64,000 nt of DNA from a bacterium (lineage in GTDB: Bacteria; Electryoneota; RPQS01), in assembly GCA_016703065.1 (NCBI GenBank), contig JADJCU010000002.1, positions 142,797-206,796 on the forward strand. Direction: 5' to 3'. The notes below the pieces were generated by a model. It saw only the letters and a program-made list of their open reading frames with translations. It was not told the DNA's origin and searched no databases. Below are positions 6,458 through 24,393 of the stretch, in pieces. The translations under genes were made by a program, and so were the position numbers. The number at the start of each line of letters is the position of its first letter. Position 1 is the first letter of the stretch.

Positions 6458-8395
6458 TTGGATAGATTGGAGTTTATTGTTCGCGAATTTTTCATAGCCT
6501 GTTGGGAGACGATCAAGCTTCCCTTCTGGCTCTTCGGAGTAGGGTGGAAGCGGCTGAAGGCCTTCGGACCGAGACGTATCGGGCTGGTCCTCTTCGCCAC
6601 CGCAATGGTCACTGTGGTCTCACTGCTGTTCTTTGTAAGAGTAACGTCGCAGCCTTCGTTTTGTAGGTCTTGCCACGTCATGGAGCCGTACTTCCAGGCC
6701 TGGGAAACCTCTACGCACAGCAACGTCACCTGTACCGAGTGCCATATCCCGCCCGGAATCGAAGGCACAGTGCATTCGAAGTTCTTGGCGATGTCAATGG
6801 TCGCCAACTATTTCACCGGCGTCTACAAGCGCTCCAAACCGTGGGCAGAGATCGATGATCGCAGCTGCCTGCGCTCCGGTTGCCACGACACACGTCTCCT
6901 GCAAAGTACGGAGAACTTCCGCGGTGTGATGTTTGATCACAAGCCGCACCTGGAGAATGTCCGTCGCGGCCGCCAACTGCGCTGCACATCTTGTCACGCG
7001 AATATCGTGCAGGGTGAGCACATCGCGGTCAACGAATCGACCTGCTTCCTTTGTCACTTCAAGCCCGATTCAGTCGGTCAAGCTACTGAACTGTCGCGTT
7101 GCACACACTGCCACAATCCGCCGCAGGGCGAAATGGCCGCCGATACGAGCTTCGACCACACCGAAATGCTTGCGCGAAAAACGGATTGTTCCAGCTGTCA
7201 CGCTACCGAAGTGGCGGGCGACGGTTTTGTTCCGCGCGAACGTTGCAACTCGTGCCACGCGCAGGTCGATCACATTCAGCGCTATGACGACCATGAATTC
7301 GTCCACCAGATACATGTGACCGATCGCAAAGTCGAGTGCACACAGTGTCATATTCAAATCCGTCACGGCAAGGAAGCGGTGCAGCTCGCCAGTGAAGAGC
7401 GCACCTGTGGCGAGTGTCACGGCGCTCCGGATAACGCGGTTGAACGGGTCTGGAAGGGCGATCTGCCCGGCCTCCCCCTGTCGCCGTCGTCAATGTCCCG
7501 CGCCGGAATGGCCTGCACCTCCTGCCACGTCGGTGAGATTCACACCAAGTCTGAAAGTCGCCCCAAGCCCGCCTGCATGCCGTGCCATGATGCCGACTAT
7601 GACAACCTCTGGCCGCTCTGGGCGGAGCCGATGACGCGCCATATCAGTGAACTCGAACAGCAGACGGCAAAGCTTGAGCCCGCTCTGCGTGACTCGATGC
7701 GCATCGCCTTGGAGTTGTACCGACGAGGTAACCCGCTCCACAACCCCGAGCTAATCAGGCTTCTGAGTGAGAAGATCACCGGGACCTCGACTCCCGGCGG
7801 CCAAGCCTGCGCAACCTGTCATCCGGGCGCTGCGAGCGCGGTCGTGGCCTACCATAATGGCACGTTCGACCATCGCAAGCATACAGCGCTTAAAGACTGT
7901 GCCCAGTGCCATGAGCCCGAGCGTAATGACCGCCACGGCAGACTGAAGCTCTCTGCAAACGAGTGCAATTCATGCCATCACGAGCCGCTGGCGAACGGCG
8001 AAACGGAGTGCGCCAGCTGCCACGCCACGCAGGCCGCCGTGTTTGCCGGCCGGGTCCCCGAGTTCGCGGCGGCCATGCCGTCGTTCAAAGTAGACCTTGA
8101 CGTGACCTGCAAAGACTGTCATAGCGTAAGCGGCGCCAACGTCTCTCGCGACGCCTCGTCGGCCTGCATCATGTGCCACGACGAGGACATTGCCGACACG
8201 CTTGCGCACTGGAAGACCGCATCCGTTCAAATGGCCAAACAGGTACAACACGCGCTGACTGCCTACCGGGCAGGCAGTGAACAATATAGAAGAAACCATC
8301 AATTCGCAGTCATGCTTCAGAAAGATGGGAGTGGGACTGCACATAATCCTGAACTATTCAAGCGGTGGTTTGAATCGCTTGGAGCGGCACAATGA
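6458..8395 (+). CDS. Membrane-anchored multiheme cytochrome c: NapC/NirT/NrfH-like N-terminus fused to a long multiheme extension (17 CxxCH + 1 CX4CH)
   Basis: 645 aa with an N-terminal TM helix (LVLFATAMVTVVSLLFFV). This is followed by CRSCHVMEPYFQAWETSTHSNVTCTECH, which is typical of NapC/NirT quinol dehydrogenases. Hand count gives 17 CxxCH, plus CLRSGCH. The start codon is TTG and uncertain. Confidence 0.85.
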   Translation: MDRLEFIVREFFIACWETIKLPFWLFGVGWKRLKAFGPRRIGLVLFATAMVTVVSLLFFVRVTSQPSFCRSCHVMEPYFQAWETSTHSNVTCTECHIPPGIEGTVHSKFLAMSMVANYFTGVYKRSKPWAEIDDRSCLRSGCHDTRLLQSTENFRGVMFDHKPHLENVRRGRQLRCTSCHANIVQGEHIAVNESTCFLCHFKPDSVGQATELSRCTHCHNPPQGEMAADTSFDHTEMLARKTDCSSCHATEVAGDGFVPRERCNSCHAQVDHIQRYDDHEFVHQIHVTDRKVECTQCHIQIRHGKEAVQLASEERTCGECHGAPDNAVERVWKGDLPGLPLSPSSMSRAGMACTSCHVGEIHTKSESRPKPACMPCHDADYDNLWPLWAEPMTRHISELEQQTAKLEPALRDSMRIALELYRRGNPLHNPELIRLLSEKITGTSTPGGQACATCHPGAASAVVAYHNGTFDHRKHTALKDCAQCHEPERNDRHGRLKLSANECNSCHHEPLANGETECASCHATQAAVFAGRVPEFAAAMPSFKVDLDVTCKDCHSVSGANVSRDASSACIMCHDEDIADTLAHWKTASVQMAKQVQHALTAYRAGSEQYRRNHQFAVMLQKDGSGTAHNPELFKRWFESLGAAQ

Positions 8396-8700
8396 CAACT
8401 CGCAAGACGACGAAAGCCTCCGCGAAAGGAGACGCTATGAACACCCTGCCTCGAACGCGCGTTAGTAAGCAGGCACGTACTGATGGTGGACCGGCCGCCC
8501 GAACGGCTGCTGAGTCTCCCCAAGGACTTCTGACTTTGTCAGAAGCCGCCGAGATGCTCGGACGCGTTCACCGTACCACAATCATGCGCTGGGTGCGTGA
8601 AGACCGCCTAAAATGTGTGCGTTTGTCACGCAAAGTCATTCTTTTTGAGCGCGACGAGATCACACGCTTCATCCGAGAGCATCGCGCAACGGGTCACTAG
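8392..8700 (+). CDS. Small helix-turn-helix DNA-binding protein (excisionase/MerR-like HTH_17 type)
   Basis: 102 aa. The segment LLTLSEAAEMLGRVHRTTIMRWVREDRLKCVRLSRKVILFERDEITRFI matches the excisionase-family HTH pattern. The start overlaps the cytochrome stop as ATGA. The N-terminal 45 aa are basic and low-complexity. Confidence 0.7.
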   Translation: MTTRKTTKASAKGDAMNTLPRTRVSKQARTDGGPAARTAAESPQGLLTLSEAAEMLGRVHRTTIMRWVREDRLKCVRLSRKVILFERDEITRFIREHRATGH

Positions 8701-9122
8701 GCAATTTCTTGCCTGCCATCGCCTTTTGCACGAGCAATTGCGCAAATTCGGCGAAAACAAGAGCAATCAAACCATCAAACGACCGTAATGAAGGGATACC
8801 GGATAAATTAATCTTCAATAATGCCTCCGTTTTGTGAAGACGTGAATTAGAGTATTTGAGTCTACAAATCTGAATTCTTTGTGCTTGAGGAACTGACCGT
8901 GCAAGGAGACAGACAGCCTCAGGTTGGTAAGAGTATTGCTGTTGGAGAAGAAGTTGTTTACAATTGGTGCAGTGACTTAGCATTGCGCTGAGTCGCAACA
9001 ATTCGACTACACAATGATCCTCCTACAGCGTCGAACCAACAACCGTATCAATGAGTTGCACTTCACTGCGACAAGCGTGACTTGCGGCCTTAATCAGACC
9101 AGACTTATCAACATTTATATTT

Positions 9123-9172
9123 CCCCCTGTGGATGCTCCACAGGGGGCGTTATATTCCGGTAAAGGCCGGAA
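9123..9172 (+). promoter_or_regulatory. Two adjacent stem-loops in the leader of the lipoprotein cytochrome gene
   Basis: CCCCCTGTGG-atgct-CCACAGGGGG (9123-9147) and TTCCGG-taaagg-CCGGAA (9155-9172), 45-90 nt upstream of ATG 9215. Function unknown. Confidence 0.35.
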
Positions 9173-9214
9173 CAACACTAAATGGGAGCAAGGCCCTAAC
9201 CCAGGGGTGCCAAA

Positions 9215-10933
9215 ATGAACCGTAAAAGACTACATCCCGCACTATTCCTGCTGATCAGCCTTCTAACCGTCGGCGTTGCGTTTATCGGCTGCGAAGGCGA
9301 CCAAGGTCCGGCAGGACCTTCCGGACTGAATCCTGATTCGGCGCCGATCATCACGGCGGTCGTCGCCGCACCGGATTCCGTCGGAACAGGCGAGAGCACG
9401 ACGCTGTTTGTCAGCGCCTATGATCCGAATGGCGACGCCATGACCTATCAGTGGTCGGCAACCAGCGGCACGCTGTCGAATCCGACTGCCGCCGTAACGA
9501 ACTACACGCCGCCCAGCGGCATCGGTCTCTACACGATAACCGTGACCGTTACCGACGCCGATGGAAGCACCTCCGGCACAGTAAACGTCGGCGTGAACAC
9601 CTACGTACCGTCAGTCTTCCCGAGCTTCTTGGGTGACAATGCCAACCGGTGCAGCCACTGCCACGAAGCCAAGGTCTCGGGCTGGGAAACAACGCACCAT
9701 GCCGAAGCTTACGCGTCACTCGTAGCCTCTGCCTCTGAGAACAACCCGTACTGCTTGCAGTGTCACACCACCGGATGGGACGACATCGTTGCCTTTGATG
9801 GCAGCGTCACCACTCCCGGCGTGGACAACGGCGGCTACGATGACTATGCAAATGTCAATCTGCGCAACGTAACCTGTGAAGCCTGCCACGGCCCGATGGG
9901 CCCGGACTTCTCGTCCCACGAACCGGACATTGAACTTGTCTCCCGCGGCGAAACCTGTAATCGCTGCCACTCGCAGTACGAAGAATACCAGACTTCGGGT
10001 CACGGTCATGCGATCGAAGTGGCCGGTGGAGTGGAAGAGTTCAACACAGAGTTTAATCGGTCAAGCTGTAACTTCTGCCATATCTCCGAAGGCTTCATCA
10101 AGAAGTGGGATCCCGACTGGGCCGACCGTGCCGTCCCGGCCGACGGCTGGCAGGTCTCCTGCGCAACATGCCACGACGTGCACTCGCTCAACGCCGAGAA
10201 CAACCCCGCCTACTTGCGCGGCCTCGATGAATTCCCGATCGTGTACGCCGGTCCGGATCATCCCGACACACTGTGGATTCCGAACGAAGAAGAAGGCTAC
10301 CTGAGCTTCGGCAAGGGCCAGCAATGCGCCCAGTGCCACCACGCTCGCCGCAACGAAGCCAACATCAATGGCCAGATCAACAACGGCTCGGCTCACCCCG
10401 GTCCGCACGCATCGTGTCAGGCCGATATGATTATCGGCCGCGGCTCATACGAAATTCCGGGCAAGACCTACGTCCGTGAGTCCCCGCACCAACCGGATAC
10501 CGAAAGCGGCGAGACTTCTTTGGAGAATATGTGCGTGACCTGCCACGTTCACACGATTCCCGGCGACACCCCCGGACACGACTATCACGGCCACAGCTTC
10601 GCCCCGGTCGTTGAAGCCTGTCAGCAGTGCCACGGTACCGGCAGTGATTTCGACTACCACGGCAAACGTACCGAGATTCAGGAGTTGATGGATTCCCTGT
10701 TCGCCATGTTGCAGAACGACGGCGCTGAACCGATCTTCGATACGACGCTCACTGAGCGTTACGAGCGTGAAGCCGCCTACGCCTGGTTCTTCGTCAACAA
10801 CGAAGGCTCGATGGGTGTCCACAACTACCCCTACGCACATTCGCTTCTGACCAACGCCATCGACCATCTGCATGAGAATGGCGCTGCGATCACCGAACCG
10901 AAGCCGACCAAGTTCGCGTTCTTCAAGAACTAA
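9215..10933 (+). CDS. Lipoprotein multiheme cytochrome c (9 CxxCH) with N-terminal PKD/Ig-like domain
   Basis: 572 aa. Signal peptide plus lipobox (LLTVGVAFIGC). An Ig/PKD-like segment (YDPNGDAMTYQWSATSGTL...YTITVTVTDADGST). Then nine CxxCH motifs (CSHCH...CQQCH). Confidence 0.85.
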   Translation: MNRKRLHPALFLLISLLTVGVAFIGCEGDQGPAGPSGLNPDSAPIITAVVAAPDSVGTGESTTLFVSAYDPNGDAMTYQWSATSGTLSNPTAAVTNYTPPSGIGLYTITVTVTDADGSTSGTVNVGVNTYVPSVFPSFLGDNANRCSHCHEAKVSGWETTHHAEAYASLVASASENNPYCLQCHTTGWDDIVAFDGSVTTPGVDNGGYDDYANVNLRNVTCEACHGPMGPDFSSHEPDIELVSRGETCNRCHSQYEEYQTSGHGHAIEVAGGVEEFNTEFNRSSCNFCHISEGFIKKWDPDWADRAVPADGWQVSCATCHDVHSLNAENNPAYLRGLDEFPIVYAGPDHPDTLWIPNEEEGYLSFGKGQQCAQCHHARRNEANINGQINNGSAHPGPHASCQADMIIGRGSYEIPGKTYVRESPHQPDTESGETSLENMCVTCHVHTIPGDTPGHDYHGHSFAPVVEACQQCHGTGSDFDYHGKRTEIQELMDSLFAMLQNDGAEPIFDTTLTERYEREAAYAWFFVNNEGSMGVHNYPYAHSLLTNAIDHLHENGAAITEPKPTKFAFFKN

Positions 10934-11063: not shown

Positions 11064-12308
11064 ATGCGAATATCCAAGTCTATGCAGATGTTACTGCTGT
11101 TAACTCTGCTTCTCGGAATCGTCGGCCCGCCGTGGACGACCGACGCTGCCGCCGCGCCCACGTTCACGGGCCGAGCCGGACTCTGGTCATACGTCCGCGA
11201 TGATTCCGTCGACCATGTCCAAATCGTCCCGCTGCTCAGCCTAAACGTCAATCGCTTGGGCTGCAGCGAAGAGTGGGCCGTCGAAACTACCTTCCGCGGC
11301 TTCGCAGACTATCAGAATGGCGCAACCAACGGCTCGGCCGTCTTGCGTGCTCACCGTGCCGTGATCATCTGGAAAACCGAAGGTACCGGCTGGGAACTGC
11401 GCGGCGGTCAACAGTGGGTGAGCGAAGGCATCGGTCGCGGCAACGACGTCGGACTCTGGAGTCGCCACGAGTTTAGCCGCAAGACCGACCTCCGCGCCTA
11501 TGTCGGCGCGCGCCTTCCCAATACGCTCGCCTTCGATCACGCGATTCCCGAAACCGGCATGACCGGAGGACTGAATTTCCGCACGAAATTCGGCCCGCGT
11601 CAACTCGGCCTGTCATACTTCTACGTCGGCGACGATGCCCGCGTCTTGTTCTCCGGGTTGGGCTTCGACTACTTTTGCGCATCACTCACCGATGTGACGA
11701 TTCGTATGCGCTTGCACATGAATCTCGAGCAGGAAGCCATCGAGACCGGCCAACTCTCCGTATACTGGCAGACCAATGACAAACTCTTGATCAACGCCGA
11801 CGTGCGCTCGCAGACTCCGCGCATCTTCGAGGACTCCTTCTTCTCAATCTTCCTCGACGAAGCCAAGACCAACACCGCCCGCGCGGGTGCTGAATACGAA
11901 TTCTACAGGCACTTCTTCGCCACCGGAATGGGCTATCTCGTCTTCACGGAAGAGGACATGCTCTACAAGACTCGCCTCGGCCTTGGGTGCAAAAAGATTG
12001 AAGTCGGCTACACCCACTGGCTCTCTGCCGGTAAGGGCGACATGGACGGCTTCTACGGCGAAATCAAGCACGGCTGCAAGGCGCTCGACGGCTACGCAGG
12101 CTTTGACTACGCGCGCGGTTCAAACAGTGAAATTCGCCCCAACAGCGAGGATCAAGTCATCTTCGCCGGCCTCGATTGGTCGCCCAAGTCGTACTTCACG
12201 ATTGGCGCGCGCGGCGAACACTTGAAAGACAGCGAGCGCAGTGAAGACTTCCGCGCTCTCTTTTCGCTCATGACCACGTTTAAGTCAGGCGTAAGGAGCG
12301 GATCATGA
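11064..12308 (+). CDS. Putative outer-membrane beta-barrel (porin-like partner of the cytochromes)
   Basis: The internal ATG at 11064 gives the signal peptide MRISKSMQMLLLLTLLLGIVG...AAAAP. Many alternating amphipathic strands are present (LGLSYFYVG, IRMRLHMNL, LSVYWQT, GAEYEFY, IEVGYTHW, GYAGFDYA, VIFAGLDWS). There is an aromatic near-terminal strand, ALFSLMTTF. No heme motifs. Confidence 0.6.
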   Translation: MRISKSMQMLLLLTLLLGIVGPPWTTDAAAAPTFTGRAGLWSYVRDDSVDHVQIVPLLSLNVNRLGCSEEWAVETTFRGFADYQNGATNGSAVLRAHRAVIIWKTEGTGWELRGGQQWVSEGIGRGNDVGLWSRHEFSRKTDLRAYVGARLPNTLAFDHAIPETGMTGGLNFRTKFGPRQLGLSYFYVGDDARVLFSGLGFDYFCASLTDVTIRMRLHMNLEQEAIETGQLSVYWQTNDKLLINADVRSQTPRIFEDSFFSIFLDEAKTNTARAGAEYEFYRHFFATGMGYLVFTEEDMLYKTRLGLGCKKIEVGYTHWLSAGKGDMDGFYGEIKHGCKALDGYAGFDYARGSNSEIRPNSEDQVIFAGLDWSPKSYFTIGARGEHLKDSERSEDFRALFSLMTTFKSGVRSGS

Positions 12309-13081
12309 GAACCATGGTGATTCTTTTCACGCTCTGCGCGGCCTCCGCATTTGCGTCTGAACACGCGCTCGTCGGCTCCGACGGCAAATTACCTTCGGCC
12401 TTCAAGCATGACGTCCACATCGAGCAGGGCGTCACCTGCGCCGCCTGTCACGTCGGCGTGGAAACCAGCGTCAAGGGCACGGACAACCTGATGCCCCTCT
12501 GGTCCGTCTGCTCCGACTGCCACTCACCCGAAGACGTCGCCAACAAGGGCGTCGCATTGGGCGAGCAAAAAGACGGCTTCGTCTATAAGACCGTAACCAA
12601 CTACAGCCCGATCTTCCGTCATCAGCGCCATCTCGAGAAAGCCAAACTGGACTGCAACGTCTGCCACGCGAATCTCGATCAACCCGTCGCCGACGGCAAG
12701 CGCGGTCACTTCCCGCTGATGTCCGACTGCATGTCATGCCACGAGCAGCGCTCAGTGCATCGCGATTGCAAGACCTGCCACCTGCCCGGCGAAAAGCTGA
12801 CTCCCGACGATCACAATCTAATGTGGGATCAGCGTCACGGCTTGGCCTCAACCGCTCCCGATGCGCAGTGCATGATGTGCCACATCAGCGGCACGAAGCT
12901 CGACTGTCAGGCCTGTCATCAGGGCGACGCGGTGATCAATCCGCATCCGCGCAACTATCTCCGAAGCCATGGTCAGGACGCGCATCTTTCGGACTTCCGC
13001 TGTGGAACCTGCCACGAGCAGCGCAGCTTCTGCGTCGACTGTCACCGCGACATTCACCCTCGCCTTCATCTCGTGCAGTGA
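12305..13081 (+). CDS. Periplasmic multiheme cytochrome c (9 CxxCH, c3/c7-like spacing)
   Basis: 258 aa with a Sec signal (MRTMVILFTLCAASAFASE). Nine CxxCH motifs, many in the F.H..H....C..CH context. The start overlaps the barrel stop as ATGA. Confidence 0.85.
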   Translation: MRTMVILFTLCAASAFASEHALVGSDGKLPSAFKHDVHIEQGVTCAACHVGVETSVKGTDNLMPLWSVCSDCHSPEDVANKGVALGEQKDGFVYKTVTNYSPIFRHQRHLEKAKLDCNVCHANLDQPVADGKRGHFPLMSDCMSCHEQRSVHRDCKTCHLPGEKLTPDDHNLMWDQRHGLASTAPDAQCMMCHISGTKLDCQACHQGDAVINPHPRNYLRSHGQDAHLSDFRCGTCHEQRSFCVDCHRDIHPRLHLVQ

Positions 13082-13892
13082 AGATCGTGTCACCGAAAGC
13101 TACGACACGCATCCGAGTAACTGGATGGATCCGTTTAGCCCCGACTGGCATGGACAAGCGGCAATTGGTTCAAGTGGTGCGAGCTGCTTGGATTGCCATG
13201 CGATCAGTAGCGCCTCGAATAGCATGAACGGTGAAGGCGCAAGTGCCGCGACACCGACGGCAGGTGCTGCCTGCTATGATTGCCACTCTTATCCGCATGT
13301 CGCGGACATGAATCGATCACATGCCGAGCACTTCCGCACTCTGCAGAACTGGTCAACGGTCAGCAACTGTCGATCCTGTCACGGTGCGGACTTCGCCGGA
13401 GGCCGCAGCGGCGCGAGCTGTAACGAATGCCATACGCAGCAGGGTGGACCCGCGGCGTGCAACACCTGTCACGGCATGCCACCCACCACGACTCGTCCCA
13501 TTGGCGGCTACAACCCCGGCGTACATGCCGCGCATTCGCGCTATGCCTGCACCGAGTGTCATGCTCGCGTGAATGGCTTGGATCATATTGACGCGTTGCC
13601 TGCCGATGTGTCGTTCGAGAATGCTCGCATCTCAAATCAACACGGCTATCCTGTGAGCTACGAGAGTCTCGGCGGCGGCAACGGGACGTGCGCTACCTAC
13701 TGTCACTCGGACTTGCACAGCGGTCCGCCGCGCGTCGCGGTGGCTTGGGCAGCTGGCCAGACATTAACAACGTGTGTCTCGTGCCATTCCGTGCCGCCGG
13801 TGTCGGACTTTCATCCAAACAATCCGCGCTGCCACGAGTGCCATCTGAACATCGATCCGGAATTCGAACTACAACAATCCGAACGCGATTAG
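12969..13892 (+). CDS. Lipoprotein multiheme cytochrome c (8 CxxCH + 1 CX3CH), Geobacter-type C..YCH...CxxCH..PP repeat
   Basis: Lipobox FTLAFISC near the N-terminus. The motif GTCATYCHSD...W....TCVSCHSVPP resembles the Geobacter CxxxxCH...CXXCH domain. The start is uncertain: ATG 12969 or GTG 13002, and both overlap the upstream gene by 80-113 nt. Confidence 0.7.
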   Translation: MVRTRIFRTSAVEPATSSAASASTVTATFTLAFISCSEDRVTESYDTHPSNWMDPFSPDWHGQAAIGSSGASCLDCHAISSASNSMNGEGASAATPTAGAACYDCHSYPHVADMNRSHAEHFRTLQNWSTVSNCRSCHGADFAGGRSGASCNECHTQQGGPAACNTCHGMPPTTTRPIGGYNPGVHAAHSRYACTECHARVNGLDHIDALPADVSFENARISNQHGYPVSYESLGGGNGTCATYCHSDLHSGPPRVAVAWAAGQTLTTCVSCHSVPPVSDFHPNNPRCHECHLNIDPEFELQQSERD

Positions 13893-13975
13893 GTTCTTGC
13901 CCGGCGACACCCTTCACGTAAACGGCGTCGTCAACGCGATCTTCCCCGGATAATCGCCATCTGCCTTGAAATAGC

Positions 13976-14017
13976 AAGCGGCCCGGCATACGAGAGATGT
14001 CGGGCCGCTTCATTTCC
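13976..14017 (+). terminator. Terminator-like hairpin after the plus-strand cytochrome operon
   Basis: 10-bp stem AAGCGGCCCG-N15-CGGGCCGCTT followed by CATTTCC. The T-tract is weak. Confidence 0.55.
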
Positions 14018-14760
14018 GCTCCGCTCTCCCCCCAAAGTTGCCGCAACTTTGGGGGACAAAGGGGGGCCTCTGGCCGGAATCTCAAGCGCTAGCGCAACCA
14101 GTCCAGCGGCACGCTAGCTCCCCTTCTCCGTTTACGGGGAAGGGGCGGGGGATGGGGTTTTGCCTCCGCTCGTCGGGGCGGCAGAACAGGCAGCCCGTCT
14201 CGTAAGGATGCCGCCCGCCCTCCGCTCTCCCCCAAAGTTGCCGCAACTTTGGGGGGACAAAGGGGGCCTCTGACCGGAATCTCAAGCGCCAGCGCAACCA
14301 GCCCAGCGGCACGCTAGCTCCCCTTCTCCGTTCACGGGGAAGGGGCAGGGGGATGGGGTTTTGCCTCCGCTCGTCGGGGCGGCAGAACAGGCAGCCCGTC
14401 TCGTAAGGATGCCGCCCGCCCTCCGCTCTCCCCCCAAAGTTGCCGCAACTTTGGGGGGACAAAGGGGGGCCTCTGACCGGAATCAGGAGCGCCAGCACAA
14501 CCAGTCCAGCGGCACGCTGGTCTCCCCCCAAAGTTGTCTGCAACTTTGGGGGGACAAAGGGGGGCCTCTGACCGGAATCAGGAGCGCCAGCACAACCAGT
14601 CCAGCGGCACGCTGGTCTCTCCCCAAAGTTGCCACAACTTCGGGGGGACAAAGGGGGCCCTCTGACCGGAATCAGGAGCGCCAGCACAACCAGTCCAGCG
14701 GCACGCTGGTCTCTCCCCAAAGTTGCCACAACTTCGGGGGGACAAAGGGGGGCCTCTCGC
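14018..14760. repeat. Nested tandem array of palindrome-bearing repeats (2 units of ~200 bp, then ~3.5 units of ~94-95 bp)
   Basis: Six copies of the 27-nt palindrome CCCCCAAAGTTG-ccg-CAACTTTGGGGG are centred near 14042, 14242, 14444, 14538, 14633 and 14727. Each is followed by conserved sequence that includes a second hairpin, CCAGCG-gca-CGCTGG. The 200-bp units carry an extra ~105-bp structured insert. Confidence 0.9.
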
Positions 14761-14796
14761 GCCTCCCCACTTATTGCCCAAATGTATAACATATTG

Positions 14797-14824
14797 ATTA
14801 TAATTGATTGTCTATATTTGACAA
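14797..14824 (-). promoter_or_regulatory. Near-consensus sigma70 promoter pointing into the repeat array
   Basis: On the minus strand: TTGTCA-N16-TATAAT (11 of 12 consensus positions) within an AT-rich island. No ORF lies downstream, only the repeat array. Confidence 0.45.
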
Positions 14825-14846
14825 ATCCCGATTTATGTATTATATT
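14818..14846 (+). promoter_or_regulatory. Near-consensus sigma70 promoter with no downstream ORF (orphan; possible ncRNA or antisense transcript)
   Basis: TTGACA-N17-TATATT (11 of 12) with an AT-rich upstream region. Its -35 overlaps the -35 of the minus-strand promoter. About 350 nt of non-coding sequence follow before the 3' end of the convergent gene at 15206. Confidence 0.45.
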
Positions 14847-15205
14847 AGCGTCAGCTAACCAAACAAAACCGCCCCGGAGGAACCCGGCGGAAGAGGCCAA
14901 CCACACGGCCTGAACGGGCGGTCCAGTCTGATCAGCAAAGAACTTGTCGTGCTGGCACGCCCCTCCAAGTACCTGCGGGGAAACCGAGACCACTACAACA
15001 GACGACCGCTTAGAAAACACTCATTGTAAGCGTAAACGCAGCGCCTGCGGGTCCAGCGTCTACGCTGGAAAAGAAAGCGGCCTCAGCTTTCGCCGAGACC
15101 GCCACTACATCAATCGTCCAATCATCAGCGAAGCGCATTAGGTCCAGCGGTACGCTGGCCAAGGCCGCAGGTGCAGGACCCAACCCGGCTTCCGCCGGAG
15201 CTTGT

Positions 15206-17711: not shown

Positions 17712-20189
17712 TTACTTGTGATTCGATTCGGTTTCGGGAGTAGTCTTCGACCCTTCGTCTGCAGCTTCGCCGCCCGGGGAAGTGAGTTTCTCGTACCAGC
17801 GGCGATGCCGGTGTTTGACGAGGTCGAGGGAGATCTTACCGGTGAGCCACGTCCAGCTCATCGGATACTCTTCGGGATGGAAGATCACGAAGAAGAAGTG
17901 CCAGACGACGATGGCGAGCGTCGCCAGCCAAGCCTCGTAGAGGTGAATGGTCTGGCTAACTGGCACGGCCCACGCGGGCAACAGCGGGGAGAGTTCTGCG
18001 GGAAACCATAGGACGAATCCGGTCGCGATCATCAGGATCGTTCCCCAGATGAGGGCCCAGTATTCGGCCTTCTGTGAATAATCGTAGCGGTCAAATCTCG
18101 GGGCTTCTTTCGACCTATTCAAATGGTAGGCCATGTTGCCGGTCATCTCAGAGATATCGGACTTACCGGGCAGCAGCGCGGACCATTCTTCACGTCCTCG
18201 TCGGGTCATGAAGAGATAAACAACATGATAGACCGAACATCCGATCAGCCCAATGGCCATGACGCGGTGGGTGACGCTGCGAATGCCTTCATCAACACCG
18301 ACCATGGCCAGGAGCTTCACCCACCATGCTTCAGGGTATTTCAAGGCGAAGCCTGTGACCGCGAGTAGAATAAAGGTCACGGAGAGCGCCATGTGCTGAA
18401 TGATCTGGTGCTTGTCAAACCGCGTGACCTTCTTGCCGGCCGTCTGATGTTCTTTGGCTTTGGCGAGATGGTAGTTCAGGATGACGAGATTATGCAGGAC
18501 CATTCCGCCGATAACGACGATGATCATGATCCAGTAGATGCGCGCAATCCACCACTGGGCGCCGCCTTCGGTCGGCTGGAGTGCCTGATGGGTGTACGAC
18601 TGGGCGAAATTCGCGTCCGCCTTGGGATGGCATTTCGCGCACGTTTCCACAAGATTGCTCTTGTAGATGGACGATAACGAGTCGTTTGCCGTGCGCACGT
18701 CATGAGCGCCGTGGCAGTCGTTGCAAGTCGGCGTCTTGTCGTCCTTCGCGACGGTCGCGAGTCCATGATAGCTATCCGTGTAAGTCGAGACCACATCCGG
18801 TGCGAGACCATACTTGCGGATGATATCGGGGTCTTCGTGACACTTACCGCATGTTTCCGCCGCGATCTTCGCATGACTGACTTTGCTCTTGGGGTCTTTC
18901 GGCGAGATCAGCAGGTGTTCGCCGTGGCACCCGGTGCAGGTCGGGCTGTCATAGATTCCGCTGCTCAGCGCGCGATAGTGAATCGAGACCTCATAGAGGT
19001 CTTTTTCATCTGTATGACACTGGCCGCACGTCTTGTGAATATTCTGAATATTGATCGTCGAATTGGGATTGCTGCTTCCGAGCACGGCGTGACCGCCGTG
19101 GCAGTCGATGCAAACGGGAACGTCCTGGTTCCCCTGCTGCAGCAGTTTGCCGTGTGTGCTTTCGAGATAGTTCTCGAACGAGCGCGGCAGTCTCACATCC
19201 GGATCCAGGGCAATCCCGATTTGACTGTGGCATGTGGCGCACGTGGAAACCTGATTGCCGCGGTGCATCGGCGACTCGGGGTCCGATACTTTGCGGATGT
19301 TGTGCGCTCCGTGACAGCTCTCGCATCTTGGGGCGCGGGGTGAACCGCTGGCAAGCGCGTAAGCATGCAGGCTCATATTGTAGCGGCGCACGGATTCCGC
19401 ATGGCACGCACCGCAGGTCGCTTCAGCGGGAGATTCATTCGTCACGCGCAAAGACGTATCGGAGGGAGCTCGACTGCGGTGTTCGCCGTGGCAGTCGAAG
19501 CAATGCGAGAGATTGCGGCCTTCGTTGAATTGCCCGTGGACGGACTTCTTGAACTCAGCCTGAATATCCTGATGGCAATTCAGGCAGGCCTGTTCGAGCA
19601 TCTGAGGTTGCTTGTCTTCGGCATGCACAGAGTGTGAGCTATGACAATCGGTGCAGCTCGGCAGGCCCTCCTTGCCGGAGTTGGCCAGACGACCGTGAAT
19701 ACCGACGTCATAGCTTGCATACGACGCGGTGCGTCCGTGCCGCGGTACGTGAAGCCTGTTGTGGCACTGTTCGCACGTCTGATCGATTCGTTCTTTGGAG
19801 ACTTTGGCGTTACCGTTCTTGGTGCCGAGTACGTTGTGCGTGCCATGGCAAGCCGCGCACTTCAGCACGCCCTCGTGACCACCTGAAGCGACTTGTGCGG
19901 CGGCGTCTTTGTGACATGCGGCACAGTCCACCGCCTTGAGCTTCTCGTCATGGGGGAAATCGTCAAAGCCCTTGAGGTCGGCGTGACAGGCGACGCATGC
20001 GAGCGCGGCATGTTTTGAGCGTGACAGCGAATCGGACGTCACGCACAATGAGACGACTGAACCATCCGGATTTGTCCTTGTCAGGGAAGCATCGGAGTGG
20101 CAGTCGACACAGGCCGCATCATCACCCGCATAGGCGGGGGCGAGCAGGCACACGAGCAGGAGCAGGGGATAGATGAGGAGACGGTTCAT
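17712..20189 (-). CDS. Paralogous 17-heme cytochrome c::cytochrome b fusion (CbcL-like)
   Basis: 825 aa with the same architecture as the downstream gene. 17 CxxCH motifs, then TM helices with His (HNLVILNYH, IIQHMALSVTF, THRVMAIGLIGCSVYHV, IHLYEAWLATLAIVVWHFFFVIFH). Confidence 0.85.
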   Translation of the reverse strand: MNRLLIYPLLLLVCLLAPAYAGDDAACVDCHSDASLTRTNPDGSVVSLCVTSDSLSRSKHAALACVACHADLKGFDDFPHDEKLKAVDCAACHKDAAAQVASGGHEGVLKCAACHGTHNVLGTKNGNAKVSKERIDQTCEQCHNRLHVPRHGRTASYASYDVGIHGRLANSGKEGLPSCTDCHSSHSVHAEDKQPQMLEQACLNCHQDIQAEFKKSVHGQFNEGRNLSHCFDCHGEHRSRAPSDTSLRVTNESPAEATCGACHAESVRRYNMSLHAYALASGSPRAPRCESCHGAHNIRKVSDPESPMHRGNQVSTCATCHSQIGIALDPDVRLPRSFENYLESTHGKLLQQGNQDVPVCIDCHGGHAVLGSSNPNSTINIQNIHKTCGQCHTDEKDLYEVSIHYRALSSGIYDSPTCTGCHGEHLLISPKDPKSKVSHAKIAAETCGKCHEDPDIIRKYGLAPDVVSTYTDSYHGLATVAKDDKTPTCNDCHGAHDVRTANDSLSSIYKSNLVETCAKCHPKADANFAQSYTHQALQPTEGGAQWWIARIYWIMIIVVIGGMVLHNLVILNYHLAKAKEHQTAGKKVTRFDKHQIIQHMALSVTFILLAVTGFALKYPEAWWVKLLAMVGVDEGIRSVTHRVMAIGLIGCSVYHVVYLFMTRRGREEWSALLPGKSDISEMTGNMAYHLNRSKEAPRFDRYDYSQKAEYWALIWGTILMIATGFVLWFPAELSPLLPAWAVPVSQTIHLYEAWLATLAIVVWHFFFVIFHPEEYPMSWTWLTGKISLDLVKHRHRRWYEKLTSPGGEAADEGSKTTPETESNHK

Positions 20190-20192: not shown

Positions 20193-21296
20193 TTATTTCA
20201 TCTTAGTTCCCGGCAGCGCTGCAGGATACGAGATATCCGCATCGTGGCAGCCGGAACACGTAGGAGTAAGCGCAAAATTACGATTCGGATGACACTCTTC
20301 ACAGGAGATTTCGACGTGTTCTTCGTTCAGCGAGAGGCCGGCAAGTTTGTGATTGAACGACTTCATGTCCCACGACTTGTGGCACGAGTTACAGTCGGGT
20401 GAAGGCTTCGTGAAATGATGCGAGTTTCCGTGGCACCGTTTGCACGACAACCGTTCGTGGTAACCTTTGAGCGGCCAGCCGGTACGATCATGCGAGAAGG
20501 CCTTTGCCTCAGTTTTGAGGTGACACTGATCACAGCTCATTTCGGCATGGCAGGAGTTGCAGATGCCATGCAGGGCCTCTTCGCTGTGGCGGATCTCTGT
20601 GGTAGTCTGATCCGACTTAGCATGGCAGGACGCGCAACCTTCGGCGTGGTGACAAGAGGCGCAGTCAATGCCGTATTTGTCGGTATGATTGCGATGGAAC
20701 AGGGTTACGACGGTGCCTCCGCCGTAGGTTGAGTTCCAGACTTTCTTTTCAGGCTGGACGAGACCTTTGAAACGACTTCCCGACTTGGGCATTCCGGCAT
20801 GCGCAGGCGGAGTTTCGCCCTTCTTGACATGGCAGATCTCGCAGGCGGTGTCGTGGCTCCAGTCCTGATGGCATCCAAGACACTGGCGGTGATAAGCGCC
20901 TTTTAAGCTCGGTTGTTCGAGGTTATCATCGGCGGCATCAGGCGGGTGGCAGTTTTTGCAGGCGGTGATGCCACCGATTTCCTGAAAGTGGTGGCAATCT
21001 TGACAGCCGCGATCCATGGCCGTCATTTCGGCATGGAGGCGATGTGAAAAGTCAACGGGCTCGTATTCGGCTTCGATTTCGTTTATTAGAATCCGATCGG
21101 GTCCCAATTTCAGTTCCTGCGGCGTAACACGCGGTCGGGGACAGCCGCGCAGGCAGGGATCTTCAAGGGTTGGGGTGCTGCAGACGTGACATTCAGTACA
21201 GCCGTTCGTAACTTTCGAAGGTTGTGCTTTGGCCAGAGAGTTATCGCTATACAGTAGCAGCGCGAGGAGTGCAGCGATGAGTGAGAATAATTGCAT
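20193..21296 (-). CDS. Periplasmic 13-heme cytochrome c (c3-family, Hmc/Nhc-like)
   Basis: 367 aa with a Sec signal (MQLFSLIAALLALLLYSDNSLAKA). 13 CxxCH motifs by hand count, with F.H..H contexts. Confidence 0.85.
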   Translation of the reverse strand: MQLFSLIAALLALLLYSDNSLAKAQPSKVTNGCTECHVCSTPTLEDPCLRGCPRPRVTPQELKLGPDRILINEIEAEYEPVDFSHRLHAEMTAMDRGCQDCHHFQEIGGITACKNCHPPDAADDNLEQPSLKGAYHRQCLGCHQDWSHDTACEICHVKKGETPPAHAGMPKSGSRFKGLVQPEKKVWNSTYGGGTVVTLFHRNHTDKYGIDCASCHHAEGCASCHAKSDQTTTEIRHSEEALHGICNSCHAEMSCDQCHLKTEAKAFSHDRTGWPLKGYHERLSCKRCHGNSHHFTKPSPDCNSCHKSWDMKSFNHKLAGLSLNEEHVEISCEECHPNRNFALTPTCSGCHDADISYPAALPGTKMK

Positions 21297-21323: not shown

Positions 21324-21449
21324 TTAGTATTTACGGGTCGAACGCTTGTTTAAGGCCTTCCAAAAGGGAACGAAGGAGAGGAGCCCAAGAATGGCCACGA
21401 TATACTCTCCAGCCTGAGTAACAAGGGTGAACTCATGTAGTGTATGCAT
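21324..21449 (-). CDS. Unannotated 41-aa single-TM ORF between the NrfD-like and 13-heme genes
   Basis: Not in the ORF track because it is shorter than 60 aa. My translation is MHTLHEFTLVTQAGEYIVAILGLLSFVPFWKALNKRSTRKY. GAGAGGA lies about 8 nt upstream of the ATG. It has a hydrophobic core and a basic tail and fills the only gap in a tightly packed operon. Confidence 0.5.
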   Translation of the reverse strand: MHTLHEFTLVTQAGEYIVAILGLLSFVPFWKALNKRSTRKY

Positions 21450-21464
21450 AGTGGTCGTCCTCTC

Positions 21465-22706
21465 TTAGTGGTTTTCGCCGGCGTAATCCGGATGCTGCAA
21501 GAGGATCGGCATGCGATTGACGATGAACTCGTAAATCAGCACGCCCAGGGTGAAGATGCTGACGGTGACTGCGATCTCTTTCCAATGCGGGACATAGCGT
21601 TCGGCGGCGTTCCAGTTCAGGGCGATCGTGGAGACGTTCAGGCGATTCAAGACAAGTCCGATGACCGTCCAGACTCCTGCGATGCGTGCCCACGAAGGTT
21701 TGAGATTACGGACCGAGAACATGAACAGGAATGCGGGCGCCAGAATGAATCCGAAGACTTCGACGAGCCACCACTGGCCATAACCTGTGGTCAGGAGAGC
21801 CCATTGATGTTCATGGGCGACGCCGATGACCTTTAGCCAGAAGTAGAGATAGAGCACGAGTGCGCCGCCCTTTGCCAGTCCGAGGATCAAGCGGTCCAAG
21901 TCGCGGTGACTAAGATGTCCGGTTTGCTTCTCGAAAAACTTGTGGGCCAGTGTTGACTCGATGATGATCATCCCGATACCGCCAGAGACGGCGGAGATGA
22001 GGAAGAAGACTGGCAGGTACATGCTGTACCAGAGCGGATGCAGTTTGCCGGGCGCGATCAAGAGGAGCGCGCCGAGCGAAGACTGATGGAGGGTTGACAG
22101 GACGACGGCCATGACCGTTGCGCCAAGCGTAAGGCGGACCGCCCACGTGCGGAGTCGTTTTGCGCCGATCCATTCAAAGAGCGGGGGCAGAAATTCGATG
22201 AACTGGCAGCCGAGGTAGAGGGCGACGCACCAGCCGACTTCGAACATCACGGAGCTTGTGCCCCACGAAACAAACATGGGGTAGGGGAGACGCCAGGGGC
22301 GACCGAGGTCGAAGGCCAGACCAACGACGACGAGTATGTAGCCCAGGAAGCCGGTGAGAATTGCCGGCCGAACCAAGGAATTATACTCGCGCAAGCCGAA
22401 GATGTGCGAGATTGTGCCGATCGTGAACCCACCGGCGGCGAGTGCAACACCGCAGAGAACATCGATACCGATCCAAATACCCCAGGGGTTGGCATCCGTG
22501 AGATTGGACACGGCGGCGAGGCCTCCGGTGAAGCGCTGAAACGCGACGGGAATACCCACGGCGAGAATTGCCCATGCGATGAAGTGACCGGGAGTAAGGA
22601 GACTTTTGAAGTAGTCGCGCGGAGTCATGCCGAGGAAGATTTTGTCCCGCATGAAGTTCGGCGCGATGAGTGGAGTTCGGTGGACAGGGGCAGTGACCGT
22701 AGCCAT
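21465..22706 (-). CDS. NrfD/PsrC-family integral membrane quinone-interacting subunit
   Basis: 413 aa and polytopic (8 or more TM helices), with typical NrfD-like composition. The start is adjacent to the stop of the FeS gene (shared position 22706). Confidence 0.75.
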   Translation of the reverse strand: MATVTAPVHRTPLIAPNFMRDKIFLGMTPRDYFKSLLTPGHFIAWAILAVGIPVAFQRFTGGLAAVSNLTDANPWGIWIGIDVLCGVALAAGGFTIGTISHIFGLREYNSLVRPAILTGFLGYILVVVGLAFDLGRPWRLPYPMFVSWGTSSVMFEVGWCVALYLGCQFIEFLPPLFEWIGAKRLRTWAVRLTLGATVMAVVLSTLHQSSLGALLLIAPGKLHPLWYSMYLPVFFLISAVSGGIGMIIIESTLAHKFFEKQTGHLSHRDLDRLILGLAKGGALVLYLYFWLKVIGVAHEHQWALLTTGYGQWWLVEVFGFILAPAFLFMFSVRNLKPSWARIAGVWTVIGLVLNRLNVSTIALNWNAAERYVPHWKEIAVTVSIFTLGVLIYEFIVNRMPILLQHPDYAGENH

Positions 22707-23653
22707 TAGTGCTCCTCCCCCGGCTCTTTGTTATTGCCGTGCGGCTTGCCATTCTGTTTGGCGGCCAGCTCGTCTTTGCGCTTTGTGAATAGATAGATGC
22801 TCAAGAAGAAGGCGGGCCAGATGGCCATGACCAGCGGTGCGGCAGAGAGGTAGTTGCGAGTTAGCGAAGGATACGGTGTTTTGCCGAGATCCGTTCGGAA
22901 TCCGAGCGTGTCGAAGGGCTGCGCCGCGAGATACATCCAGCTTGTCCCGCCGACTTCGTGCTCGCCGTATATGTGGTCGACATATTTCTCGTGGTGACGA
23001 GCGATTTTTTGGCGCGCGACTTTGATCAAGTCTTCGCGTTTGCCGAAGGTCATCACTTCCCGGGGGCAGGCCTCGGTACAGGCAGGTGGTTTGCCTTCTT
23101 TCAGGCGGGTCTCCAAACAGAAAGTGCACTTCCGGACTCGGGGGTGGAGTGCACTCGCGTATTCATAGGTAGGGATATCGAATGGGCAGGCTATCATGCA
23201 GTAGCGGCAGCCGATGCAGACGCTGGCGTCGTAGGCGACGGCGCCTTGATCGGTTTTTGTGAATGCACCGACGAGACAGGCGGACGCGCAGGCGGGTTCG
23301 TCGCAGTGCATACACTGTTTCTTGACGTAAACCGGCGAGTCAGGATTCGAACCGGGGAAACGATTGACAACGGTAAATTGTCCGGGATGTGTGCGGCGGG
23401 GTTGGTCGAACACTGTTGCATCTTCCGGCGCCTTGTCGAGGGCGGGGAGATTATGTTCTTTGGCACAAGCGAGTTCGCAGCGCCGGCAGTTTTGGCCGAT
23501 GCACTGAGTGGTATCAACGAGAATTCCAAAGCGGTCAGGATTGCCTTCGAATTCCTCCACTGCGGCAGACGCGTCATTAGGCAGCGCACCTGCTCCGACT
23601 CGCACGGCGGCCAAACCGGCGAGCTTGAGGAAGTCTTTTCGACTGATATTCAT
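22706..23653 (-). CDS. Tat-exported 4x[4Fe-4S] ferredoxin subunit (NrfC/HybA/HmcB-like) with C-terminal TM anchor
   Basis: 315 aa. Tat-like signal MNISRKDFLKLAGLAAV. Cys clusters CIGQNCRRCELAC, CMHCDEPACASAC, CIGCRYCMIACP and CTFC...CTEACP. C-terminal helix LVMAIWPAFFLSIYLF. Confidence 0.85.
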   Translation of the reverse strand: MNISRKDFLKLAGLAAVRVGAGALPNDASAAVEEFEGNPDRFGILVDTTQCIGQNCRRCELACAKEHNLPALDKAPEDATVFDQPRRTHPGQFTVVNRFPGSNPDSPVYVKKQCMHCDEPACASACLVGAFTKTDQGAVAYDASVCIGCRYCMIACPFDIPTYEYASALHPRVRKCTFCLETRLKEGKPPACTEACPREVMTFGKREDLIKVARQKIARHHEKYVDHIYGEHEVGGTSWMYLAAQPFDTLGFRTDLGKTPYPSLTRNYLSAAPLVMAIWPAFFLSIYLFTKRKDELAAKQNGKPHGNNKEPGEEH

Positions 23654-23817
23654 TTTCTGCTCCCCCCTTTATCGGCTCTATGCGACTTTTTTCACAAAGA
23701 TAGTTGCGAGAAGTTGCGGCAAGTTGCGTTTCAGGGAATTGCAATAACAACTACAGCCGGTACACGATACGGAATTCCGCAACGATGCACCGGCTGTAGT
23801 CATAGGTGTGAAGAGAG

Positions 23818-24393
23818 TTATTCTGTCTTACCGGCGGTGCTATCGGCAACTTCCGGTACGTGGTGTACGATCTTGTCGTAGGCTTCCTTGAAGTTGAAGC
23901 CCTTGAAGGTCGGCGACTTTTCGTTATGGCACTTGGTGCAGGTGGCTTCTGTCGGGATGATCATCCCGGCCGCCAGCGACGCTTCGCGGCTTTCCATGAC
24001 CTTCTTCGACTTGTAGTTCGAGCCCGGTCCGTGGCAGGCTTCGCAACCGACGCTGCCGAGGGCTTCGGCATTGTGCATCGTGGTGTCTGCACCAAAGCCG
24101 CTGGGGGTACCGTAGCCGGTGGTATGGCAGGCTAAACACTCGGCGTTATTCTGCTCGCCCTTGGCAACTAACGATTCCATGGACTTGGCGTGCTTGGTCT
24201 CAAGCCAGCCTTCCCAGATATTGCCGTTCTTTTCGCCCTTGTGACACATCTTGCACTTACCGGAGCCGATGTAGGCCGGATCACCGGTCGGGGCTGCATC
24301 TTCAGCGTAGACGGACAATGCCGAGAGGGCAAAGCCAAACACAATCAATGCACCGAGGATCTTTGAACTAGTTCTGCTCATTGCTCTTTCCAT
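23818..24393 (-). CDS. Small tetraheme cytochrome c (cytochrome c554-like family)
   Basis: 191 aa with a signal peptide. Four CxxCH motifs (CKMCH, CLACHTTGYG, CEACHGPGS, CTKCH). First gene of the minus-strand operon. Confidence 0.8.
   Translation of the reverse strand: MERAMSRTSSKILGALIVFGFALSALSVYAEDAAPTGDPAYIGSGKCKMCHKGEKNGNIWEGWLETKHAKSMESLVAKGEQNNAECLACHTTGYGTPSGFGADTTMHNAEALGSVGCEACHGPGSNYKSKKVMESREASLAAGMIIPTEATCTKCHNEKSPTFKGFNFKEAYDKIVHHVPEVADSTAGKTE

Follow-up and report, generated by a model that had tools for sequence, protein, structure and literature searches.

A conserved multihaem cytochrome locus in an uncultured bacterium: a putative electron conduit between the menaquinone pool and the cell surface

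Gene content and haem motifs

The window analyzed here is a stretch of 64,000 nucleotides of contig JADJCU010000002.1 (assembly GCA_016703065.1), and the subject of this work is its region 6458-24393, in which two convergent operons encode eight multihaem cytochromes along with a beta-barrel, an iron-sulfur (FeS) protein, and further membrane proteins (Table 1). The whole set amounts to ~14 genes and ~96 putative haem sites, and it probably specifies a trans-envelope electron conduit linking the menaquinone pool and the cell surface.

The number of haem motifs is far beyond chance. A scripted count on the translations gave 94 CxxCH, one CX4CH, and one CX3CH over the eight cytochrome open reading frames (ORFs), exactly the figures reached by hand in an earlier reading of the letters and translations (the sequence-only reading below). 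This corresponds to 94 motifs in 3,995 residues, versus a single one in the 9,326 residues of the 17 other ORFs of the window, and of the 98 CxxCH matches in all six frames of the window, 94 fall within the region. When the eight proteins were shuffled (500 composition shuffles), the number of CxxCH motifs averaged 0.8 and never exceeded 3. The sequence-only reading had also singled out conservation in homologues as a check on the motifs, and indeed the canonical motifs of all eight proteins and both atypical ones were kept in the recovered orthologues, down to 37% identity. Of the domains it had listed, NapC/NirT, Fer4_11, NrfD, Ni_hydr_CYTB, and c554 were recovered by profile searches. Loci of relatives are given here as L-numbers; a GTDB-wide scan for relatives of the barrel retrieved 42 loci.

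No CxxCK motif was found in any protein of the gene set by the scripted count, nor did motif counts and Pfam reveal in it a molybdopterin or other soluble-substrate catalytic subunit. Catalytic cytochromes of the nitrite or hydroxylamine type were ruled out, given the lack of CxxCK and a sole structural match to hydroxylamine oxidoreductase (HAO) that was weak (E 0.12).

Table 1. Features of the 6458-24393 region of the window, with haem motifs as counted on the translations
Feature	Position	Strand	CxxCH	Atypical motif	Size, match, or remark
NapC/NirT/NrfH-type quinol dehydrogenase, inner membrane	6458-8395	+	17	CX4CH at residue 137	645 aa, PF03264
Small HTH_17 DNA-binding protein, candidate regulator	8392-8700	+			PF12728, E 1e-11
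9-haem lipoprotein, PKD/Ig domain and c554-like module	9215-10933	+	9	none	Pfam
Outer-membrane beta-barrel, haem-free	11064-12308	+			414 aa, signal peptide, 22 predicted strands
Periplasmic multihaem cytochrome	12305-13081	+	9	none	Sec signal
Lipoprotein cytochrome	12969-13892	+	8	CX3CH at residue 241	Lipobox Cys codon 13074-13076
Deletion junction	13050-13060				Alignment to L046
Tandem array, 94/200-nt units	14019-14757				In the 1.3-kb spacer 13893-15205, outside the system
17-haem cytochrome c and FdnI-type di-haem cytochrome b, paralogue A	15206-17698	-	17	none	830 aa
17-haem cytochrome c and FdnI-type di-haem cytochrome b, paralogue B	17712-20189	-	17	none	825 aa
Periplasmic 13-haem cytochrome c3-type protein	20193-21296	-	13	none	Pfam Cytochrom_CIII
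Single-helix membrane ORF	21324-21449	-			41 aa, conserved
NrfD-family membrane quinone-interacting subunit, HmcC-like	21465-22706	-			NrfD, E 1.8e-16
Periplasmic four-cluster FeS protein, HmcB-like	22706-23653	-			Fer4_11, E 5.7e-19
Periplasmic tetrahaem c554-like cytochrome, first gene of the operon	23818-24393	-	4	none	Cytochrome_C554, E 2.3e-14

Inner-membrane modules

The first gene of the plus-strand operon encodes a protein that exceeds the Pfam cut-off for PF03264 (40.7 versus 24.1 bits) and matches the NrfH structure 2j7a_C in a PDB sequence search (E 2e-11). Hydropathy places its single N-terminal membrane helix at about residues 39-64; the tetrahaem module comprises the sites at residues 69, 92, 137 (CLRSGCH), and 176, and 14 more haem sites lie beyond. 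The first site, CRSCHVM, has the CXXCHxM form of NrfH, known from the NrfH structure as the mark of the quinol-side haem. With the 17 canonical motifs and the CX4CH kept in 6/6 orthologues, the protein has 18 putative haems. NapC-type proteins of 640-700 amino acids (aa) are widespread, and this one did not reach the NrfH equivalog TIGR03153 (46.9 versus 134.2 bits). The start of the HTH_17 gene overlaps the NapC-type stop by 4 nt and the pair is also present in L001, L004-L008, and the distant clade L047; the HTH_17 protein is a candidate dedicated regulator.

The minus-strand operon carries a second module, similar to the Hmc complex. Its first product, the c554-like cytochrome, has a signal peptide and four motifs kept in 5/5 orthologues, and its gene always stands ahead of the HmcB-like one in L002, L015, and L017. 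The FeS and NrfD proteins scored near, though below, the NCBIfam equivalog thresholds of HmcB (401.2 versus 420 bits) and HmcC (499.7 versus 550 bits). The former combines a Tat-type signal (SRKDFLK, SRRDFLK in orthologues) with a C-terminal membrane anchor, both conserved, and the latter has ~8-9 hydrophobic segments. The tiny ORF that follows them has homologues at the same position (40 aa in L001; 45 aa in L002/L047, with LVTQAxEYxVxIxGLLxFVPxW shared), and is a candidate small subunit of the HmcBC-like complex. The 13-haem cytochrome has a signal peptide and its motifs were kept in 5-6/6 orthologues; it is weakly HmcA-like, by its C-terminal region (E 7e-13, 48 bits versus a cut-off of 400). 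An HdrD/HdrE-like ORF, counterpart of HmcE and HmcF, was not found in the gene set.

The last two genes of this operon are fusions of a multihaem cytochrome c with a cytochrome b domain. Paralogue B passed the cut-off of PF01292 (54.1 versus 30.1 bits) and matched E. coli FdnI (1kqf_C) by sequence (E 1e-5); its AlphaFold2 model (predicted local distance difference test [pLDDT] 75.8) reached a TM-score of 0.72 to the same chain, on FdnI length. Paralogue A, below the PF01292 cut-off with 26.7 bits, gave matches to Ni_hydr_CYTB and the formate dehydrogenase gamma subunit, and its 17 motifs were kept in 5/5 orthologues. The b-haem His ligands, equivalent to FdnI H18, H57, H155, and H169, are found in both paralogues and nine homologues; the fourth was one residue off in the MAFFT alignment and was aligned by HMMER. 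The two proteins are only 30% identical to each other and each has a 61-64% identical orthologue in a distant genome, which indicates that the duplication is old. More than 7,000 clusters are related to these b-fused proteins.

The outer-membrane trio

Downstream of the NapC-type gene, a haem-free barrel is encoded together with two multihaem cytochromes. The most likely start of the barrel gene is 11064, rather than 10872. An AlphaFold2 model built from a 41-sequence alignment (mean pLDDT 80.7, predicted TM-score 0.70) consists of a signal helix and 22 strands. Foldseek retrieved outer-membrane barrels only (AlgE, OccD/K, MOMP, and usher pores), with a probability of 1.0 to closed barrels of 18-24 strands and TM-scores of only 0.4-0.54. 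No family match was found in Pfam (E ≤ 0.01), NCBIfam, or PDB sequences (E ≤ 10). A barrel of the MtrB_PioB type was ruled out, since there was no Pfam or PDB sequence match and MtrB was not among the top Foldseek matches.

The periplasmic cytochrome keeps its nine remaining motifs in 16/16 homologues. The lipoprotein cytochrome matches TIGR01904, the Geobacter-type CxxxxCH/CxxCH family (34.4 versus a cut-off of 27), and PF09698 (24.1 versus 21.7), and its eight motifs plus CATYCH were kept in 16/16 orthologues. Those orthologues have a signal peptide followed by [LFV]xSC-SEDR, of which the window keeps AFISC-SEDR. The atypical motif is confined to the lipoprotein (CATYCH in close relatives, CxxVYCH in distant ones), with none in the periplasmic partner.

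The order barrel, periplasmic cytochrome, lipoprotein was found in all 17 close loci that reach far enough and in nearly all distant ones. Close relatives of the barrel form 46 clusters, all from uncultured genomes, while a full HMMER profile search recovered 493 representative clusters with E ≤ 1e-3, of which 249 remain at E ≤ 1e-10. The named members of the family are all called "hypothetical protein" and come from Calditrichia, Bacteroidota, Zixibacteria, and KSB1. In the distant loci (Caldithrix, Calditrichaceae, Rhodothermales, and Bacteroidota), with barrels 22-27% identical, the next two genes after the barrel almost invariably encode a 10-12-haem cytochrome and a 6-12-haem lipoprotein with a CX4CH site. 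Since the same layout is found at such distances, the trio is an old module of the Fibrobacterota-Chlorobiota-Bacteroidota (FCB) group. In three loci (L011, L012, and L016), genes for a 9-haem protein of 368 aa and another protein of 327 aa precede the barrel, 12-haem, and 8-haem genes.

Ahead of the trio lies the gene of a further lipoprotein, with PKD, Big_9, Cytochrome_C554, and Cytochrome_C7 domains in Pfam. Eight orthologues (L001, L004-L009, and L020) share its lipobox and the residues after it (GCEGDQGPAGPSG) without change, its nine motifs were kept in 9/9, and we consider it a candidate surface terminal cytochrome or extra surface reductase. Collagen-like G-x-y triplets follow the lipobox Cys, with a longer run in the divergent 9-haem lipoprotein of L047.

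The predicted Sec and Tat signals, lipoboxes, and membrane helices of the set are consistent with the proposed topology. Thus far, domain searches and predictions bear out the anatomy put forward by the sequence-only reading, namely three classes of quinone-coupled modules, periplasmic multihaem cytochromes, a barrel, and lipoprotein cytochromes. The same parts could also be arranged in a network confined to the periplasm, of the Hmc/Nhc/Tmc kind, in which periplasmic dehydrogenases or reductases would be tied to the quinone pool, the barrel would be an ordinary porin, the lipoproteins would face the periplasm, and there would be no extracellular transfer. The HmcB-, HmcC-, and HmcA-like similarities fit such a network, as do the generic porins among the structural matches of the barrel and the fact that the surface exposure of the lipoproteins is a prediction. 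Yet two multihaem genes follow the barrel in essentially every member examined (Calditrichia, Rhodothermales, Bacteroidota, and the clade of the window), a linkage not expected of a general porin. Moreover, the lipoprotein has an atypical motif together with TIGR01904, a domain characteristic of the outer-surface cytochromes of Geobacter, and there are no hydrogenase or formate dehydrogenase catalytic genes inside 6458-24393. Given how regularly two cytochrome genes accompany the barrel, we regard a purely periplasmic network as very improbable.

A deletion within the trio

The sequence-only reading described the toolkit as complete, which does not hold for its outer-membrane module. Not all three genes of the trio are intact in the window, owing to a deletion at ~13054. 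The periplasmic cytochrome has 258 residues and nine haems here, versus 293-313 residues and 11-12 haems in every homologue. In an alignment with nine homologues, its reading frame breaks after CVDCHRD and the last two CxxCH are gone; the missing segment is not encoded in any other frame. The window was compared with L046, whose barrel protein is 92% identical, and in which positions 3280-3433 correspond to 12900-13053 of the window and positions 3680-3800 to 13060-13180, so that ~240 bp are absent from the window (~170 bp when measured against L001-type genes). The deletion is seen relative to every homologue.

The deletion takes from the periplasmic cytochrome its two final haem sites, and from the lipoprotein the start codon together with most of its signal peptide. 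At the junction, which shows only a 3-nt microhomology (CAT), what is left of the 11-haem gene runs directly into the lipobox of the 8-haem lipoprotein. The ORF start of the lipoprotein at 12969 is fortuitous, the native one having been lost, and the "9+8" pair of cytochromes is a damaged "11+8" pair. A second defect affects metH (B12-dependent methionine synthase), a single gene of 1,227 aa in L001 that is split here by a frameshift at ~3172-3175. Given the deletion and this frameshift, either the contig contains consensus errors or the strain carries real lesions, and the conduit may be impaired.

If the deletion were real, the outer conduit would be inactivated and the system would be decaying, a relic whose inner-membrane parts may serve otherwise. 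It is seen against all homologues, including the one with the 92% identical barrel protein, a microhomology as short as CAT is seen more typically at real deletions than where repeats have collapsed, and the leftover N terminus of the lipoprotein is unconvincing as a signal peptide. Against this, the remaining genes are intact with every haem motif preserved, and the frameshift in a housekeeping gene such as metH points to assembly or consensus errors in the contig. On balance, we consider decay a real possibility, although the less likely outcome.

Linkage and stability of the locus

The convergent bipartite arrangement with all modules contiguous is shared by the window, L001 (on a 3.37-Mb contig), L006 (1.93-Mb contig), and L007. 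The flanking metH and beta-eliminating-lyase genes are common to L001, L004-L006, and L008, and between the two operons of L004 and L008 there is an inserted VWA gene with a type IX secretion system (T9SS) tail. A different arrangement appears in L002 and L047, which lie on one JGI contig (barrel 41% identical), where all components form a single co-directional string: barrel, 12-haem, 8-haem, ResC, ResB, c554, HmcB-like, HmcC-like, small ORF, 13-haem, paralogue B, paralogue A, NapC-type, and HTH_17, and then a divergent 9-haem lipoprotein gene. Embedded in this string are the ResB/ResC genes for cytochrome c maturation. Maintenance of the linkage through such rearrangement is the strongest evidence that the modules work together.

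It also settles whether the two operons could have been joined by an assembly chimera of two organisms, the possibility raised by their convergent orientation and by the 1.3-kb repeat-rich spacer between them. The linkage survives rearrangement, with all genes in one string in the distant relative, and the identical convergent layout with its flanks is found on the megabase-sized contigs of L001 and L006 (and the layout in L007), while GC content is uniform across the region. This concern, already voiced in the sequence-only reading, is effectively refuted by the conserved synteny, and the chance of a chimera is next to nil.

The same reading had called the region an island. The GC content is 0.55-0.60 throughout, and neither tRNAs nor integrases were found at the locus. 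Even composition, the absence of these genes, and the syntenic metH and lyase flanks rule out a mobile genomic island, and we regard the region as a stable chromosomal locus.

Spacer and transcription signals

The spacer between the convergent operons, only ~95-140 bp long in L001 and L006, contains in the window a tandem array of 6-7 copies, each with a GC-rich palindrome of ~30 nt (CCCCCCAAAGTTGCCGCAACTTTGGGGGG) that was found nowhere else in the window. It is not a CRISPR array, as the tandem repeats are identical and lack unique spacers, and the 312-aa ORF at 14082-15020 (minus strand) was discarded as a gene, having no Pfam match and a translation that mirrors the repeats. An AT-rich stretch at 14770-14850 shows back-to-back sigma-70-like hexamer pairs, with 11/12 matches on each strand.

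A terminator-like hairpin with a 12-bp stem lies at 15103-15076, immediately after the last gene of the minus-strand operon. It coincides with a sub-threshold match to BjrC68 (15068-15147, minus strand, 26.6 versus 39 bits), which is probably just the terminator, and the Rfam scan of 5.9-25.1 kb gave nothing else. In the scan for sigma-70 promoters and terminators, counts were not above the shuffled expectation, with hairpins noted at the operon ends.

Host lineage and genomic background

The relatives of the window are labeled "bacterium" or "Calditrichaeota bacterium." From the isolate name of one of them, HK-STAS-AABM5-4, and the naming scheme in PMC8518188, we infer that they belong to the phylum AABM5-125-24 ("Ca. 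Electryoneota"). Eight loci (L004, L005, L009, L011, L016, L017, L019, and L020) carry binchicken titles reading "uncultured Alphaproteobacteria bacterium," in conflict with their FCB-type content and with how the other relatives are labeled; we treated these titles as unreliable, probably placeholders or mislabels. The background is that of an FCB-group lineage and not of Desulfobacterota, in line with the sequence-only reading, which had pointed away from Desulfobacterota. Of the five T9SS cargo genes that it listed in the window, Pfam confirms four, with the C-terminal sorting domain Por_Secre_tail in the ORFs 10-933, 24955-27231, 28549-30837, and 51936-53318. This domain was absent, according to Pfam, from all eight cytochromes and the barrel. 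Elsewhere in the window, 31200-35105 and 35469-39380 encode tandem paralogues of ~1,300 aa with subtilase (S8), CarboxypepD_reg, and NIDO domains. In the literature we found no paper tying AABM5-125-24 (Electryoneota) to multihaem cytochromes or extracellular electron transfer.

Comparison with described systems

In contrast to the sequence-only reading, for which the combination matched no described system, each module is of a described kind (Pcc-like, CbcL/MtoC-like, NapC/NirT, or Hmc/Nhc-like).

The trio follows the logic of the Geobacter porin-cytochrome complexes (Pcc) OmbB-OmaB-OmcB, ExtABCD, ExtEFG, and ExtHIJKL, with a haem-free barrel of ~400-450 aa (PMC4245776, PMC5585712), a Sec-exported periplasmic multihaem cytochrome, a multihaem lipoprotein with the TIGR01904 domain, and extra cytochrome genes associated. 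In Pcc, it is the outer lipoprotein that carries atypical CX3-15CH motifs, which the periplasmic cytochrome lacks (Shi et al. 2014, PMC4245776). The trio of the window follows this rule, and the likeness lies in layout, motifs, and domains. Nevertheless, the haem numbers are swapped, with 8 in the periplasmic OmaB and 12 in the lipoprotein OmcB of Geobacter but 11-12 and 8+1, respectively, in the system described here. Gene order also differs (barrel, periplasmic cytochrome, and lipoprotein here), as do the 22 predicted strands and the unannotated barrel family, whose named members all come from FCB-group phyla. Furthermore, the inner-membrane modules linked here to the trio are scattered in Geobacter.

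Shewanella MtrCAB, MtoAB, and PioAB share the logic of a cytochrome threaded in a barrel, with a surface lipoprotein cytochrome as its cap, although MtrB-type barrels have 26 strands, versus 22 predicted here. The MtrA/DmsE decahaem family TIGR03508 (cut-off 192 bits) was not reached by the periplasmic cytochrome (21 bits) or the 17-haem domains (71-83 bits).

Closer to the host, Pcc-like clusters have already been noted in Caldithrix and Ignavibacteria (PMC6137239, PMC4245776), of the same superphylum, and Caldithrix abyssi is reported to have a porin homologous to the Geobacter pcc porin with associated cytochromes (Fortney et al. 2018, PMC6137239). Caldithrix and metagenome-assembled genomes of Calditrichaceae share the layout of a barrel and two cytochromes. 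However, those reports concern the outer-membrane cluster only. In the clade of the window, this cluster is accompanied by the 9-haem lipoprotein with a PKD domain and by linked modules of the NapC, HmcBC, and twin CbcL types.

By architecture, the b-fused proteins belong with CbcL/MtrH/MtoC, a family known from 15 phyla with 3-23 haems and 416-1034 aa, ranges that include their length and haem number (PMC6295460). Like CbcL (GSU0274), they have an N-terminal multihaem c domain and a C-terminal HydC/FdnI-like di-haem b domain of 5-6 helices. Unlike CbcL, with nine haems, they have 17 and are encoded as tandem paralogues, 30% identical, directly downstream of an HmcBC-like complex. The NapC-type protein shares with NrfH, CymA, and NapC/NirT the single N-terminal helix, the tetrahaem module, and the CXXCHxM first site, but differs from NrfH in its 14 further haems, its length, the CX4CH at the third haem of the module, and the lack of an NrfA-type partner.

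As in the Hmc and Nhc complexes of Desulfovibrio, FeS and NrfD subunits are combined with a large c3-type cytochrome, of 13 haems here versus 16 or 9, and a small membrane subunit. Unlike Hmc, the complex has no cytoplasm-facing HmcE and HmcF subunits, and its order is c554, B, C, small subunit, and cytochrome. The host, unlike Desulfovibrio, is not a known sulfate reducer.

Proposed function and direction of electron flow

In the conduit that we propose, electrons would enter by three quinone-coupled routes. The NapC-type protein, with its 18-haem chain, would oxidize quinol at the periplasmic face; the HmcBC-like FeS/NrfD pair, with the small subunit and the 13-haem partner, would provide a second route, and the two anciently duplicated 17-haem FdnI-type b fusions (CbcL-like) a third one. 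The long periplasmic haem chains and the tetrahaem c554-like protein would then carry electrons across the periplasm to a porin-cytochrome complex, made up of the 22-strand barrel, the 11-12-haem cytochrome presumed inside it, and the 8(+1)-haem lipoprotein outside, with the PKD-domain lipoprotein as a likely additional surface reductase. Flow would most likely be outward, for the anaerobic respiration of acceptors that are insoluble or outside the cell, such as Fe(III) or Mn(IV) minerals, humics, electrodes, or partner cells. The several membrane modules may serve different windows of redox potential, like ImcH, CbcL, and CbcBA in Geobacter, which work at different acceptor potentials (PMC5585712, PMC6295460). 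Of the dedicated extracellular electron transfer system claimed by the sequence-only reading, the anatomy from inner membrane to surface stands, while complex formation, surface exposure, direction, substrates, and extracellular partner are matters of interpretation.

Several points weigh against the proposal. It is built on computation and the lineage is uncultured; the structural matches of the barrel are generic barrels, at the low TM-scores given above; the PKD-domain lipoprotein is not kept at the same place in the distant clade; and, as written in the window, the conduit is probably not intact. In addition, modules of the FdnI, Hmc, and Qrc types classically reduce quinone with periplasmic electrons, as is established for the FdnI and Hmc families in E. 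coli (Fdn-N) and Desulfovibrio (Hmc and Qrc), their type organisms.

The last point suggests the opposite direction, in which electrons would be taken up at the surface from Fe(II), reduced humics, a cathode, or a syntrophic partner and pass through the conduit to menaquinone. The FdnI- and HmcBC-type modules would reduce menaquinone at the cytoplasmic side, generating a proton gradient by a redox loop, and quinol would be oxidized in turn by a terminal oxidase or N-oxide reductase. Besides the behavior of these families in their type organisms, inward flow is favored by the FdnI/HydC-like b domains with conserved ligands, the closeness of the FeS/NrfD pair to HmcB and HmcC, the conservation of two paralogous b-fused copies, and the presence of CbcL/MtrH/MtoC homologues in Fe(II) oxidizers as well as Fe(III) reducers (PMC6295460). 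On the other hand, the conserved set includes a dehydrogenase of the NapC/NirT/NrfH type, classically outward and quinol oxidizing, and CbcL of Geobacter, with the same architecture as the b fusions, works outward (PMC6295460, PMC5585712). Besides, the many secreted T9SS peptidases of the window suggest an organoheterotroph in need of electron sinks, and no carbon-fixation or oxidase genes were linked in the loci examined. We consider inward flow a real, though unlikely, rival.

Within the proposed conduit, a more specific arrangement can be put forward, tentatively and with rather little confidence in it as a whole. An FCB-native Pcc family and membrane-anchored wires of 17-18 haems docking directly with it would form a shuttle-free circuit of ~100 haems. 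The trio would represent a distinct family of ~500 clusters, annotated as "hypothetical protein," that evolved apart from the conduits of Geobacter and Shewanella. Haem chains of the MtrA or OmcS type extend ~0.8-1 nm per haem, from which a 17-18-haem wire would reach ~13-15 nm and bridge most of the periplasm. The three potential-tuned entry points would thus be encoded as one unit.

Implications

What is understood of the mechanism of extracellular electron transfer comes almost entirely from Shewanella and Geobacter. Here, a conserved unit joins three inner-membrane entry modules to an outer conduit in uncultured FCB bacteria of activated sludge and sediment. Its compactness as a single locus, especially in the co-directional string of L002 and L047, makes it suited to heterologous reconstruction. 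An unannotated family of barrels gains a testable function, and "hypothetical" barrels beside two multihaem genes offer a search handle for further conduits in the FCB group. If the proposed function is true, respiration of metals, humics, or electrodes (or electron uptake) would extend to abundant protein-degrading heterotrophs of wastewater and sediments.

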